Notes under the pieces: generated by a model | Told to the model about the DNA's origin: nothing | Databases searched by the model: none | The model's input: only the letters and a program-made list of their open reading frames with translations | Position numbers and translations under genes: made by a program | Shown: positions 4,362 through 20,782 of the stretch, piece by piece | How the letters are laid out: every line of letters begins with the position of its first letter | How positions within the stretch are numbered: position 1 is the first letter of the stretch | From: Promethearchaeota archaeon | GTDB lineage: Archaea > Asgardarchaeota > Lokiarchaeia > Sigyniarchaeales > SOKP01 | Direction: 5' to 3' | Assembly: GCA_048940925.1 (NCBI GenBank) | Contig: JBHLOC010000057.1 | Span: forward strand, 1-25,628 | DNA length: 25,628 nucleotides

Positions 4362-5207
4362 TCATTTTTTGGGTTTTAGTTTTTCAATTTCCGCTTTCAC
4401 ATTTTGTATCTCATCTTCTAATCTTTTAAGTTCTTTTTTTGATGAGTGTTTTTCAGCCTTTAAGAGTTTCATTTTGTGTTCGAGATGTCTTATATATGTA
4501 ATTAAATAGTCGACATCTTTCTTTGAGTGTTTTCTCTTCCTTTTAGTATGGGGAGATCGTTTTGGCGGAAATGGAAAACCAAGTTTATCTTTTATGGAGT
4601 AAGGGTGGTCTATATGAGGAGTATGGCGTGGGATTTGAGGTTCTAAATCAACTTTAATTTCATCTATATCCTCGTTCTCTAGAATTTTTATGATTTTCTT
4701 GAACATTTCTCTTAGATTTTCTCTTGTTTTTAGAGATATTTCAATTGATTCTGTGATATTATTAGTATTTTTGAAATCATCTACTTGTTTTCTGGTAACA
4801 TCTCGATTTTTTTCTAAATCTATTTTATTTCCTATTAATAATATTGGATGCTCATGTCCTATTTCATTTTTTATTTCTTTCAAGAATTCAGAGAGATTGT
4901 CTAAGGATTTTCGGTTGGTGATATCATATAACAAGATAGTTAGATTTGAGCCTCGAATGTAAACCCTCCAGTTAATTCTATTACATATATCATCACTAAG
5001 CATCCAAAATTGTAATTTTATTATTTTATCTCCATTAATAACAACACTTTTAGAAAAAAAATCAACACCGATTGTCATTGTCAAATCTTTATCAAAATAT
5101 GATACCAGATATTTAGTTACGAGCGCATTTTTGCCTACATCTTTACCTCCAAACACACTTATTTTATATCTTTTATGATAAGTCCTCATATATTTCGCTT
5201 TATTCAT
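4362..5207 (-). CDS. Rab-like small GTPase with degenerate G1/G3, plus basic segment and C-terminal coiled coil
   Basis: YKISVFGGKDVGKN (G1), TIGVDF (Rab switch I), KLQFWMLSDD (G3 position), YDIT, GNKID (G4) and EISLK (G5). Heptad repeat at aa 235-277. Confidence 0.85.
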   Translation of the reverse strand: MNKAKYMRTYHKRYKISVFGGKDVGKNALVTKYLVSYFDKDLTMTIGVDFFSKSVVINGDKIIKLQFWMLSDDICNRINWRVYIRGSNLTILLYDITNRKSLDNLSEFLKEIKNEIGHEHPILLIGNKIDLEKNRDVTRKQVDDFKNTNNITESIEISLKTRENLREMFKKIIKILENEDIDEIKVDLEPQIPRHTPHIDHPYSIKDKLGFPFPPKRSPHTKRKRKHSKKDVDYLITYIRHLEHKMKLLKAEKHSSKKELKRLEDEIQNVKAEIEKLKPKK

Positions 5208-9232: not shown

Positions 9233-10249
9233 TTGTTACAAAATATATTTCTATTTAAGGGTACGAAGTTACAAAATTTAAAAGATTTAGAGATATATTG
9301 CTATCCAAATGAAATAATCAAAAATACCAATGAAGACCTTATAAAAGACATTATTCTTAGTCATAATAAAGGAGAATTAAATTATAACAATAAATCCTAT
9401 TCATATTGTAATAATCACAATCATTATAAAATTGACATTCCTGTTGCCCAAATAACTAAAAAATTAAATTTATACACGTCATGTATTAACGGAAACATTC
9501 TCATAGGATTAATATTTGATAAAGAAGATAATCCTTATGATTACAAACTTATCTTTGAAGAACAATTGAACGAATTATTAAATAATGGAGAAGGTTATTC
9601 ATTTGAGGATGAAATTGAGATCGATAATTTTTTAATATCAATTTTTATTGATATTCGCAGGTTTGGAGACGAAGTCATAGAAAAACCATCCGAAATAGAA
9701 TATTACTATCAAAAAGAAACTTTTTTCAAAGTGTTTCTCTTTGGTATTGATGAAGTAGGGAAGTCAAGTTTAGTAAGACGATTAAAAACAGGGGAATTTA
9801 ACGAAAATTTTTTTACGCCTACAAGGAAATTTAATATCGAATATATTCCAGTTGAAGAAAAAGGTTCCCTGTTAGCTGTGTGGGATATGCCTGGCCAAAA
9901 ACTCTTCAGATCAAAATGGCTTAAAGGTCTTCAAGATTCTAACATACTCGTCTACATGATTGATATTGCAAACCAAAGAAGATTTGAAGAATCAAAACAA
10001 GAATTTTGGGATATAATAAACAGAAGTGAGTTGGATGGAGTTCCTTTAGTAATTATAGGAAATAAAATCGATCTATTCAAATATTCAGATAATGAATATG
10101 AAGATCAGCTTCAATCTTTAAAGGAAGAACTTTTTAAGTATTTTGATTTTAAAAAAATTAAAAATAGAGAATGGTTCTTCCTCTTTACCTCAGTTAAAAC
10201 TAACTTCAATATGGAGACTTTAATAGAAACGATTTTTGATTTAATCTAG
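9233..10249 (+). CDS. Arf-like small GTPase with N-terminal longin/uDENN-like domain
   Basis: The C-terminal half has intact GIDEVGKSS, FTPT..FNIE, WDMPGQ, GNKID and TSVK. The N-terminal ~150 aa follow a beta-beta-alpha-beta-beta-beta-alpha-like pattern (NIFLF, EIYCYP, LNLYTS, ILIGLIF, DNPYDY). The domain name is inferred. Confidence 0.85.
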   Translation: MLQNIFLFKGTKLQNLKDLEIYCYPNEIIKNTNEDLIKDIILSHNKGELNYNNKSYSYCNNHNHYKIDIPVAQITKKLNLYTSCINGNILIGLIFDKEDNPYDYKLIFEEQLNELLNNGEGYSFEDEIEIDNFLISIFIDIRRFGDEVIEKPSEIEYYYQKETFFKVFLFGIDEVGKSSLVRRLKTGEFNENFFTPTRKFNIEYIPVEEKGSLLAVWDMPGQKLFRSKWLKGLQDSNILVYMIDIANQRRFEESKQEFWDIINRSELDGVPLVIIGNKIDLFKYSDNEYEDQLQSLKEELFKYFDFKKIKNREWFFLFTSVKTNFNMETLIETIFDLI

Positions 10250-16778: not shown

Positions 16779-17003
16779 ATGGCATCAGATTTGTTAACAA
16801 TTATCTTAACTCTATTTTAATAGATAAATAAAGTATTATTAAATATATGTTATTTAGAAAATAAAACTTTATTTTTTCATTAATCTAAATAATTAAATTA
16901 TTGAACTATTATTTAATTATTAATAAAAGAATAATAATTAGAGTAATTAGCAAAGTTCTGAGATTTATTCTTTATAAATGTTCCTAAAAATCGTTAACAT
17001 AAA

Positions 17004-18209
17004 ATGGCTGAGCAAAGAATCCCAGAAAATATTGTTGTTTGTATAGATTCTTCGAGATCGATGTATAGAAAAGATTATTCCCCAAATCGACTGACTAGCT
17101 GTGTAAATGCTATTAAAACTCTAATAAAAGAGAGATTCAATAAAGATTGTTTAAGTGCATTTGCGATAATAAAATTTTCTGATACAGCAGAAAAAATAAT
17201 AGATTTTACAAGTTCCAGTTTTGTAGATAATATAGATTCTGCTTTAGATTCTTTAACTTGTGGAGGATATTCTTCTATTGGTGATGGATTAGCACTATCA
17301 ATTAAAACCCTCATAGCAGAATTACGAAAGGTCAGTGCAAAATCTCCCAGAATTCTCTTAATCTCTGATGGAAAAACAATGAACACCGCTGTGGATCCTC
17401 TAAAAATGGCACGACTTGCTCAAGGCTTGAATATTAAGATAGATACCTTTCTAATAGGAGAATTAAGTCATCAAAATATTTTAAAAAGATTAAGTGATCT
17501 TACGGAAGGTAGATTTTTTTATAATAATGATCCTGAATGCCTAATACGATCTGCCCAAGAAATCGCTGATGATAATTATAAGACTTATGGATTAAATACT
17601 CAGAAAATTAATGAAAATCCTGCTTTTCTTAGGAAAATCGCAGCAAATTTATTGAGAGTTCAAGATTTAACTAAAGATCAAGAACAAAGAGCTAAACAAA
17701 TAAGAGGAGAGGTAGATTATAAAAAATGTTCAATCTGTTTTTCTGATAAAAATCCTTATACTAAAGGTTCTTTTTATTTGACAGGCAGATACTGTCCTAA
17801 TTGTACTACTCCTTTTCACATACATTGTCTAGCTGCCTGGGCTGATTCTCAAAAGGATCATGTAGCAAAGAGATCTGGGACTGCTAGATGTCCACACTGT
17901 TTTTATTTAGTTAAAATTCCAATGGAAATATCTCAAATACAAAAATTACGTATTCTTACTGGAGGACCTAAAGAAAAACCAACTAAAAGACCAGAAGTTA
18001 TTCCAGCGAAATTTATCGAAAATGTTGCAATACTAGGAGAAGACGCTTTATTTAATGCTTGTCCAGTATGTCATTTTATTTTTGAAAAGGGACAGAGAGT
18101 AGTTCAATGTGGTAATTTAGGATGCAATACTCTTTATCATGAGGATTGCTTTAAAAAGTTAAAAGGTGGACATTGTAGAAATTGCGATGTAAAGCTCCAC
18201 CTTTATTAA
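17004..18209 (+). CDS. vWA domain + two C4HC3 RING-variant fingers; putative E3 ubiquitin ligase
   Basis: IVVCIDSSRSM (MIDAS DxSxS) and LLISDG. RING1 ligands C242/C245/C264/C267/H272/C275/C296/C299; RING2 ligands C353/C356/C369/C374/H379/C382/C391/C394. Confidence 0.88.
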   Translation: MAEQRIPENIVVCIDSSRSMYRKDYSPNRLTSCVNAIKTLIKERFNKDCLSAFAIIKFSDTAEKIIDFTSSSFVDNIDSALDSLTCGGYSSIGDGLALSIKTLIAELRKVSAKSPRILLISDGKTMNTAVDPLKMARLAQGLNIKIDTFLIGELSHQNILKRLSDLTEGRFFYNNDPECLIRSAQEIADDNYKTYGLNTQKINENPAFLRKIAANLLRVQDLTKDQEQRAKQIRGEVDYKKCSICFSDKNPYTKGSFYLTGRYCPNCTTPFHIHCLAAWADSQKDHVAKRSGTARCPHCFYLVKIPMEISQIQKLRILTGGPKEKPTKRPEVIPAKFIENVAILGEDALFNACPVCHFIFEKGQRVVQCGNLGCNTLYHEDCFKKLKGGHCRNCDVKLHLY

Positions 18210-18229: not shown

Positions 18230-18484
18230 ATGAGTGATGTAAATAATTTAAAGCAACAAATAAATGTAGCAGCATATTTTCTTGCACAAAAGAATTATAC
18301 TTATGATAAATTATGTTGGATGCTTGCGGAAAGAGAACTTATTGCACAAAAAGACGCTAGATATAAGGAAGAACAGAGAAAAAAAGAAAAAGCGGCACAA
18401 ATATTCTTCCAAGGACTACCTTATGATCTTCTTACGTGGTTAATAGCTGAGCTTGATATTTTAATCAAATTAGGAAAAATTTAG
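18230..18484 (+). CDS. Small protein with two internal DUF2934-like repeats
   Basis: The ATG at 18230 avoids overlap with the upstream gene (84 aa). Repeats INVAAYFLAQKNYTYDKLCWMLAERELI and KEKAAQIFFQGLPYDLLTWLIAELDIL. Confidence 0.75.
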   Translation: MSDVNNLKQQINVAAYFLAQKNYTYDKLCWMLAERELIAQKDARYKEEQRKKEKAAQIFFQGLPYDLLTWLIAELDILIKLGKI

Positions 18485-19642: not shown

Positions 19643-20782
19643 ATGATAAATAATTTTGATAATGAGAGTAAGGAAATAGAAGCAATACAATTAATAGATA
19701 AAGCAGAAGATTTAGCTGATCGGAATAAAGGAGAAGAAGCAATTAATTTTTATGAAAAAGCAGCCCAGATTTATCTTGATTTAGGTAGTTATATCAAATT
19801 AGATGAATTATACATAAGAATAGCACAAATAATTTCACAGTTTAAAAATAATATTCAAGCAGTCTATAGATTAAAATCCATTATAAGAAAAACTGAGGAA
19901 TTGAAATTAAACGAAGTTTCAGCGAAATTGTTAATACAGTTAGGGAATGTTTCTTATAGAATGCGAGATTGGGAAACTGCAGGAGAATCTTGGCAAAAAG
20001 CTTCAGAATATCTAATTGAGGTTGATCCTGAAGAATATAATAGTCTTTCTTCAGTCTTGCTTTTAAAAGCAGGACAAACATTTGAGCGATCACGAATAAA
20101 AAAGGATTTAGGTAAACGCTTAATACTTAAAGCAGTAATGAAAATTAAGAAATTTGACGAATTATATGAAGAAGCAGAAAAACGTGCTTTATATCTCATA
20201 TCAGCAGGTGAACTTGAAGCAGCAGCTAAAAAATTCAATAATATTGCAACATACTTCCAGTCAGCATTAGAAGATTTGAGAGAAATTATTGATGAGGAAG
20301 AATCTACAGATACAATGCTTAATGCAAGAGCACGATTTATACATTTTGTAGCGGAATATCAAACATTCTCTGCATTATGTTTACGGGCATCTGAAAACCG
20401 TGACTTTAATGAGAAAATTAAGAAACTAGGTATGGATTCGATTAATCGCTTTAAGGAGTCAATTTCTCTTCTTAAAACTTATCTATTTCCTAAATCTCCT
20501 GAATTTGATCATGAAGTTATCCTAAGAGTGACTTTTGATACAATGCTCCTAGCTATTATTCAACAAATGTTAGGTATACAAGAAATAAATTCATCTGCAT
20601 ATCTTTTTGATGGTATGAAGGAGAATAAAGCATTAATTAAACAATTGAAAAAATCTCCTTATTTTACAATTACTGAAAGAATCGAAAGACTAGGAGTAAG
20701 AGAAGGATTTGAAGATCTCCTAAAAGTTAATCTAGGGCATTTTGAGAGTATAAAAAACACACTAATCTCTTATTTTAAATGA
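19643..20782 (+). CDS. Alpha-solenoid (TPR / alpha-SNAP-like) protein
   Basis: EEAINFYEKAAQIYLDLG, WETAGESWQKASEYL and LEAAAKKFNNIATYF repeat-type helices; predicted all-alpha. Confidence 0.65.
   Translation: MINNFDNESKEIEAIQLIDKAEDLADRNKGEEAINFYEKAAQIYLDLGSYIKLDELYIRIAQIISQFKNNIQAVYRLKSIIRKTEELKLNEVSAKLLIQLGNVSYRMRDWETAGESWQKASEYLIEVDPEEYNSLSSVLLLKAGQTFERSRIKKDLGKRLILKAVMKIKKFDELYEEAEKRALYLISAGELEAAAKKFNNIATYFQSALEDLREIIDEEESTDTMLNARARFIHFVAEYQTFSALCLRASENRDFNEKIKKLGMDSINRFKESISLLKTYLFPKSPEFDHEVILRVTFDTMLLAIIQQMLGIQEINSSAYLFDGMKENKALIKQLKKSPYFTITERIERLGVREGFEDLLKVNLGHFESIKNTLISYFK

Follow-up and report, generated by a model that had tools for sequence, protein, structure and literature searches.

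The window (the whole analyzed stretch of DNA, 25,628 nucleotides, G+C approximately 30%) carries a gene whose product consists of a vWA domain, a linker, and two C4HC3 fingers, RING1 and RING2 (Table 1). The ORF with its vWA domain and the two fingers that follow had been described in an earlier note on this DNA, and the coordinates and motifs given there were exact. Genes for Ras, Arf, and Gtr1/RagA-like GTPases and for MtrH, radical-SAM, and prismane proteins are among the neighbors, a gene content typical of Loki-type Asgard archaea. Three small-GTPase genes are located within 25 kb: a Ras-like gene at 4362–5207 (−), an Arf-like gene with an N-terminal extension at 9233–10249 (+), and the Gtr1/RagA-like gene listed in Table 1.

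Table 1. Features of the vWA-RING-RING locus and their positions in the window.
Feature	Position	Strand	Basis
vWA-RING-RING protein gene (P0001)	17004..18209	+	ORF, 401 aa, ATG start
vWA domain, residues 5–192	17016..17579	+	Pfam VWA_2, VWA, Ssl1; family HMM envelope 5–192
Linker, residues 193–241	17580..17726	+	AlphaFold model: two helices, one short stretch of low confidence
RING1, C242...C299, C4HC3 cross-brace finger	17727..17900	+	Ligands invariant; structural matches
RING2, C353...C394, C4HC3 finger without Trp and Pro	18060..18185	+	Ligands kept; profile and structural matches
Gtr1/RagA-Arf-like GTPase gene, 402 aa	15570..16778	−	Pfam Gtr1_RagA 1.8e-20, Arf 2.6e-18
Shared intergenic region between divergent genes, 225 bp	16779..17003	.	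ORF coordinates

In the AlphaFold model, the mean pLDDT was 85.4 for the whole vWA-RING-RING protein and 80.9 for residues 236–401. The linker helices were predicted at residues 206–212 and 224–234, and pLDDT was below 50 at residues 197–200. Homologues numbered 331, nearly all of them 401 aa long and 60–88% identical. Because of these homologues of near-fixed length and the confident model, the architecture was considered real and not a product of chance. The public relatives are annotated as "VWA domain-containing protein" and assigned to Promethearchaeota or Lokiarchaeia. In the literature search, no paper was found on an Asgard vWA-RING, p44-like, or Rpn10-like protein, nor on a vWA-RING-RING family. 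The vWA-RING-RING protein represents a strongly conserved, unstudied family of Loki-type Asgard archaea.

The full architecture was detected in 68 of 68 genomes of the family to which the window belongs, in 7/7 genomes of the sister family, and in one of two further genomes from the class. Sampling of other classes in the phylum yielded weak matches only (E 1e-11 to 1e-13), which were presumed to be vWA-only. Each genome holds 2–6 family copies. A second full copy from the same genome is found on contig C55 (P0121, 29% identical), together with three shorter relatives elsewhere in the genome. Three divergent relatives in this genome map to contig C41 (31843–34145) and contig C70 (14560–15606), and two of them form a tandem pair having the vWA domain and RING1 only. 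No common neighbor was seen in the gene neighborhoods of the distant paralogues.

Pfam placed the vWA domain at residues 9–178 (VWA_2, 1.3e-15; VWA, 1.6e-13), and the Ssl1 model (PF04056) scored 38.9 bits on it against a cut-off of 27. The latter match is not p44-specific, since Rpn10 proteins match PF04056 too. The MIDAS, previously read from the motifs DSSRS and LISDG, is complete: all five residues (D15-x-S17-x-S19, S90, and D122 in "LISDG") are present and were identical in 36/36 orthologues (at least 58% identity), except for one Thr at position 90. In the paralogues, the MIDAS residues are partly kept. Structure alone did not discriminate between the candidate relatives of the domain, as the VIA Z was 24.5–24.9 for the p44/Ssl1 vWA (rmsd 1.9–2.0), 23.4–24.1 for bacterial vWAs, and 22.3–22.9 for Rpn10. 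Scored against the family by HMM, the best prokaryotic vWAs (95–115 bits) ranked above Rpn10 (70–76 bits) and p44 (53–74 bits).

The closest solved structures by sequence were those of p44/Ssl1 and Rpn10, the two proteins that the vWA domain had been said to resemble. The single-sequence search of solved chains returned human p44 as the best match (1.5e-7), followed by S. pombe Rpn10, and the family profile matched Rpn10/S5a (1.2e-18, 70.6 bits) and p44 (1.4e-16) ahead of bacterial vWAs. When the whole model was submitted to Foldseek, the top 17 matches were full-length p44/Ssl1 chains, aligned over approximately 390–410 columns (E 1e-17 to 1e-12); vWA-only matches reached approximately 1e-11 to 1e-12. 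The hhalign comparison of the family with the vertebrate p44 alignment (99.2%, E 3.2e-19) was collinear over 322 columns and placed RING2 on the p44 RING. In RING1, only C264/C267 and C296/C299 ("GRYCPNC...RCPHC") were paired with p44, namely with its four zinc-ribbon cysteines; that the site II cysteines of RING1 may be homologous to those of the ribbon is a suggestion from the alignment, not a result.

The vWA-RING-RING protein and p44/Ssl1 (GTF2H2) belong to the same length class (401 and 395 aa, respectively), have the same order of vWA domain, zinc finger, and C-terminal RING-like finger, and have the motif D-x-S-R-[ST]-M...D..PNRLT in common. However, the central finger of p44 is a one-zinc C4 ribbon, whereas the vWA-RING-RING protein has a full two-zinc RING with E2-contact residues. 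The p44 protein also has an N-terminal extension of approximately 55 residues, which is absent from the vWA-RING-RING protein; the latter differs further in its complete MIDAS and in the linkage of its gene to a GTPase gene, not to XPD. The p44 C1_4/TFIIH C1-like model (PF07975) gave no match at this gene, either in the Pfam search of the protein (E up to 10) or in the genome-wide scan, although RING2 aligns with the p44 RING both in structure and in hhalign. Yeast Ssl1 has been reported to have E3 activity, and within TFIIH p44 binds p34 through its C-terminal RING. Rpn10/S5a (PSMD4) shares with the family the vWA domain, being its best profile match among solved structures and grouping with it in the tree (see below). 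It differs in being a proteasome subunit with UIMs, no RINGs, and a degenerate MIDAS (D-N-S-E-Y). Pfam detected no UIM (PF02809) in the vWA-RING-RING protein, whereas Rpn10 proteins carry PF02809, and the two RINGs occupy the place where Rpn10 has its UIMs after the vWA domain.

For the vWA tree, 25 family sequences, 6 sequences each of vertebrate p44 and Rpn10, and the 40 top-ranking prokaryotic vWAs from outside the family were analyzed in IQ-TREE under LG+C20+F+G4. A branch with support of 100/98 separated all 40 prokaryotic outsiders from the family side, on which p44 and Rpn10 were placed together (96/86) among the family's branches. Either of them alone stayed with the family when the other was removed (97 each). 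The vWA phylogeny, which the earlier note had proposed as a check, groups the domain with p44/Rpn10 and not with the nearest generic prokaryotic vWAs (100/98); the eukaryotic branches are long and come from vertebrates only, and the outsiders were picked by likeness to the family. In the first tree, which included P0258 and P0219, p44 and Rpn10 were found with the other prokaryotic vWAs (unstarred 88). Both rows were unstable: P0219 is a fragment, and P0258, which has a long branch, belongs to the family but had been labelled an outsider. The AU test on the first tree (p 0.017 against family+p44) was discarded, because the constraint put P0246 and P0258, both of them family members, on the wrong side. 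Trees without these rows were used instead, and the instability of the first tree is a caveat.

As far as sequences can tell, kinship of the vWA module with those of eukaryotic Rpn10 and p44 is better supported than a generic vWA resemblance, within the limits of the sampling and the narrow distribution. In the reverse search, the fish Rpn10 vWA and zebrafish p44 were run against 301 Asgard genomes, and matches were obtained only in genomes of the class to which the window belongs and always at loci of the vWA-RING-RING family; the zebrafish p44 query matched the window gene at 1.5e-10 (32% identity). Apart from the vWA domain of the family, none that groups with the Rpn10 and p44 vWAs was found in the searched Asgard genomes. 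Rpn10 and the non-helicase TFIIH core count as eukaryotic inventions, and no paper on an archaeal relative of either was found in the literature searched. Descent of p44 or Rpn10 from the vWA-RING-RING family is plausible but unproven, and the tree fits, but does not demonstrate, the earlier suggestion of a possible relation to the ancestor of one or the other.

The RING1 ligands are arranged as C242-x2-C245-x18-C264-x2-C267-x4-H272-x2-C275-x20-C296-x2-C299. Conservation of the fingers was assessed in two alignments, one with 33 and one with 72 relatives, the most distant being 21% identical. The eight RING1 ligands and W279, located four residues after ligand 6 (C275), were invariant in 72/72 sequences; position 244 ("CSIC") was Ile in 68/72 and Val in the remaining four, and P297 ("CPHC") was kept in 69/72. 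RING E3s such as c-Cbl and Rbx1 contact the E2 through an Ile after the first Cys, a Trp four residues after ligand 6, and a Pro in the last CPxC. These hallmarks of RING1 had been picked out from the single sequence as CSIC, the Trp of CLAAW, and CPHC; they are near-invariant in the 72 relatives, and I244, W279, and P297 are kept even in paralogues of only 22–35% identity. The RING2 ligands (C353, C356, C369, C374, H379, C382, C391, and C394) were each found in at least 90% of the sequences. At the E2-contact positions, RING2 has V/I, Leu/Met (Trp site), and Lys/Arg (Pro site), and its lack of Trp and Pro, likewise described before, holds for the family.

The two-finger model was compared with 48,161 representative solved chains using VIA-align. 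RING1 best matched the FANCL RING 4ccg_Y (Z 7.8, rmsd 2.0, 64/67 residues, 28% identity), a chain from an E2-E3 complex, and human FANCL 7kzp_L gave Z 7.2. The Ltn1 RINGs (yeast, Z 6.5; human, Z 6.0; 28–30% identity) and then Nse1 were also matched, and the rmsd to the FANCL/Ltn1 RINGs was 2.0–2.2. FANCL and Ltn1, to which RING1 had been likened by its motif, are its best structural matches in the predicted model. RING2 best matched E2-binding RING-H2 domains with Z of 6.3–7.1 (RNF165, 7.1; ZNRF1, 7.0; RNF12, 6.8; RNF13; RNF38), and its Z against the p44 C-terminal RING was 6.0 and 5.1. Z values of 6–8 for domains of approximately 60 residues are modest and within the range that the tool calls common. 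The RING assignment was nevertheless adopted, as the structural matches are consistent and agree with those of the family profile to the RINGs of Arkadia, RNF165, and RLIM (6e-8 to 1e-6; 6e-8 to 1e-5 for the RING-H2 domains overall).

With Foldseek, the two fingers matched RING ligases (TRIM2, RNF165, Slx1, Ltn1, FANCL, APC11, and RNF13) at a probability of 0.97–1.0 and PHD arrays at 0.15–0.4; the two-finger model had no match below E 1e-3. The Pfam scores of the fingers were below cut-off for zf-RING_2 (23.9 vs 27.3), FANCL_C (PF11793; 13.9–16.1 vs 27.3), and, in RING2, Prok-RING_1 (PF14446; 28.1 vs 29.1 bits), and a precomputed PF14446 match exists in some orthologues. The eight-ligand cross-brace order is present, as is, in the model, a predicted RING fold (Z 6–7.8 and rmsd 2.0–2.5 to FANCL, Ltn1, and RNF165). 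The likeness of RING1 to FANCL is structural and seen in the predicted fold, the FANCL_C score being far under the cut-off. The FANCL and Ltn1/Listerin RINGs share with RING1 the C4HC3 ligand order and the Trp in the central helix, but their ELF/DRWD domains and HEAT repeats are unrelated to the vWA-RING-RING protein.

The gene lies head to head with the Rag-like GTPase gene, a neighbor absent from the earlier note. According to the coordinates, the same head-to-head pair of orthologue and Rag-like GTPase gene occurs in approximately 60 genomes of the family and in 3/4 same-contig cases in the sister family, the gap between the two genes in relatives being approximately 200–400 bp; a spacing close to that in the window, approximately 200–230 bp, is recurrent among them. 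The paired GTPases of the sister family are only 34–38% identical and the pairing is still kept, so that it is conserved across the order. The paralogues of the vWA-RING-RING gene do not have a Rag-like GTPase neighbor. With small GTPase genes so abundant in these genomes, having one as a neighbor is in itself weak evidence, yet the pairing is orthologous and recurrent, and it is the strongest contextual clue. A Rag-like GTPase gene is also found between two vWA-RING-RING family genes in another genome (G183, contig C66:82724–86616).

On the 3' side, the vWA-RING gene is directly followed by an 84-aa helical ORF at 18230–18484 (+). It represents a conserved domain, which is present in 58/61 family genomes in 1–5 copies each and also sits within frames of 200–1300 aa. 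The position directly after the vWA-RING gene is kept within the genus; the ORF is co-directional in this genome (G000), G156, G192, G171, and G008, and convergent in G195, G150, G049, G177, and G189. Further downstream, a 379-aa TPR/SNAP/RPN7-like protein is encoded at 19643–20782 (+), and such genes are recurrent near family members: one is located directly downstream of the 43%-identical P0122 (L008), and the gene follows that of MtrH in L010 and in the window. The distant member P0129 (34% identical) is divergent to a 271-aa ThiF-type E1-like gene (L012:2158–2973, −), and a 542-aa Ras/Roc GTPase gene is found two genes away.

The ubiquitin operon of the genome is on contig C30 (36000–50000, locus L024), a different contig from that of the vWA-RING-RING gene, and contains three Ubl genes and genes for an E1 (411 aa, L024:6579–7811), an E2 of 175 aa, and a JAB peptidase of 277 aa. 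Three UQ_con E2 genes were found in the genome, two of them outside the operon. In the complex prediction, the operon E2 (L024:7925–8449) and RING1 scored 0.13 against a mark of 0.32, which speaks neither for nor against binding. The last operon gene encodes P0391, a multi-pass membrane protein of 392 aa. Its C-terminal sequence, CIFC...CPKC-x4-H-x2-E-x3-W...CSRC, has a RING1-like pattern with Glu in place of ligand 6. This likeness comes from motif reading only, as hhalign of the finger profile against P0391 gave 52% probability in a shifted register. An XPD homologue is encoded on contig C62, another contig than that of the vWA-RING-RING gene. For the TFIIH subunits Tfb4/p34 and Tfb2/p52, the genome gave only a weak 18-bit self-match and no match, respectively.

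On balance, the vWA-RING-RING protein is probably a cytosolic E3 ligase or adaptor of the RING type that is specific to Lokiarchaeia, judged from sequence comparison and predicted structure. Its reading as a substrate-docking adaptor of the RING E3 type is based on the RING fold, the E2-contact residues kept in RING1, the complete MIDAS, and the ubiquitin machinery of the genome. The vWA domain would dock partners or substrates, and an acidic side chain would complete the Mg2+ site; RING1 would recruit the charged E2~Ub and promote discharge onto the docked protein; RING2 may act as a second binding or assembly module; and the Rag-like GTPase could be a target or a switch of the ligase activity. 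The E3-adaptor interpretation had been offered in the earlier note. Its claims on the vWA domain with p44 and Rpn10, on FANCL/Ltn1, and on the RING nature of the fingers hold, and its functional core stays something we infer.

The ligase reading is weakened by the location of the gene outside the ubiquitin operon, by the finger Pfam scores under cut-off, and by the existence of RING-like scaffolds, since RING-like folds also serve purely as such in the p44 RING, the GATOR2/SEA RINGs, and Nse1. The main rival, possible but on the unlikely side, is a non-catalytic scaffold in the style of p44/Ssl1, which would hold a complex (e.g., around the Rag-like GTPase and the TPR/SNAP-like protein) or act as an allosteric regulator with no ubiquitin transfer. 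Such a scaffold would fit the collinearity with p44 in hhalign, the full-length p44/Ssl1 chains that head the Foldseek matches, and the match of RING2 to the p34-binding RING of p44. High identity at fixed length would suit a protein with many interfaces, and the TPR/SNAP-like gene recurs beside family members. However, a pure scaffold would not need the E2 contacts that are kept even in the distant paralogues, and human p44 has no full RING at the position of RING1. The C4HC3 spacing C-x2-C-x4-H-x2-C is also that of PHD fingers, and PHD_NSD (17.9–20.8 bits) and PHD gave weak Pfam matches below their cut-offs, but a role of the fingers as PHD-type modules that read peptide tails, on chromatin or another substrate, is very improbable. 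RING ligases outscored PHD arrays in Foldseek and were the top VIA matches, so that the fingers come out as RING; a PHD outcome is what the earlier note had named as counting against its reading. The hallmark PHD Trp two residues before ligand 7 is absent as well: position 294 is occupied by Ala in this protein and by Phe in most of the family, and Arg 295 is near-invariant.

The likeness to p44 might also be taken literally, as that of a true orthologue or ancestor-like form of TFIIH p44 acting with the archaeal XPD in repair or transcription. The Ssl1 score above cut-off, the rank of p44 as the best solved match by sequence and fold, the grouping of the vWA domain with p44 and Rpn10, and the XPD homologue in the genome all point that way. 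This identity is nonetheless strongly doubted, as Tfb4 is represented only by the 18-bit self-match, Tfb2 is not found, the C1_4 model has no match at the gene, and the N-terminal extension of p44 is absent. The Ssl1 model matches Rpn10 also, XPD is unlinked and the conserved neighbor is a GTPase gene, and XPD is widespread in archaea, whereas the vWA-RING-RING family was found in one class only. There is equally little reason to expect an Rpn10-like ubiquitin receptor or proteasome-associated factor: the best profile match among solved structures is Rpn10/S5a, the tree groups the two, and a gene for a proteasome alpha subunit is found near one distant member, but the protein has no UIM, Rpn10 itself has neither RINGs nor a complete MIDAS, and no link to proteasome genes was found in the window.

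Proteins with vWA and RING domains in one polypeptide, acting as E3 ligases or scaffolds, are described in the sources consulted for plant RGLG and WAV3/SOR1 and for yeast Ste5/Far1, the latter with RING-PH-vWA (PMC12647413, PMC5924906, PMC11047095, PMC3023161). As described, these eukaryotic proteins differ from the vWA-RING-RING protein in having another domain order or a single RING and a vWA domain of the copine type or other clades. For archaeal RING E3 activity, the ubiquitin operon of Caldiarchaeum subterraneum provides a precedent, with a small RING finger that was shown to work with its cognate E1 and E2 (PMC5654768). That RING is a small stand-alone, operon-encoded protein with no vWA domain and no second finger.

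Going further, the vWA-RING-RING family might be the surviving archaeal stock of the module that gave the Rpn10 vWA and the whole of p44/Ssl1, the p44 ribbon being a half-decayed RING1 that retains only site II (C264/C267 and C296/C299), and the p44 C-terminal RING deriving from RING2. We regard this scenario as rather unlikely; if it is true, Rpn10 and p44, which are eukaryotic signature proteins, would trace to an Asgard ubiquitin-ligase adaptor, and if the evolutionary link holds, two eukaryotic machines would have a testable origin. The finding concerns a widespread conserved Asgard protein whose vWA domain groups with those of Rpn10 and p44, whose layout is p44-like, and one finger of which shows the full active-RING E3 signature. 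Should the protein prove to be a ligase, the Asgard ubiquitin system would have in it an E3 that docks substrates and is tied to a Rag-like GTPase, a combination reminiscent of the RING-bearing GATOR2/SEA complexes that regulate Rag GTPases in eukaryotes.
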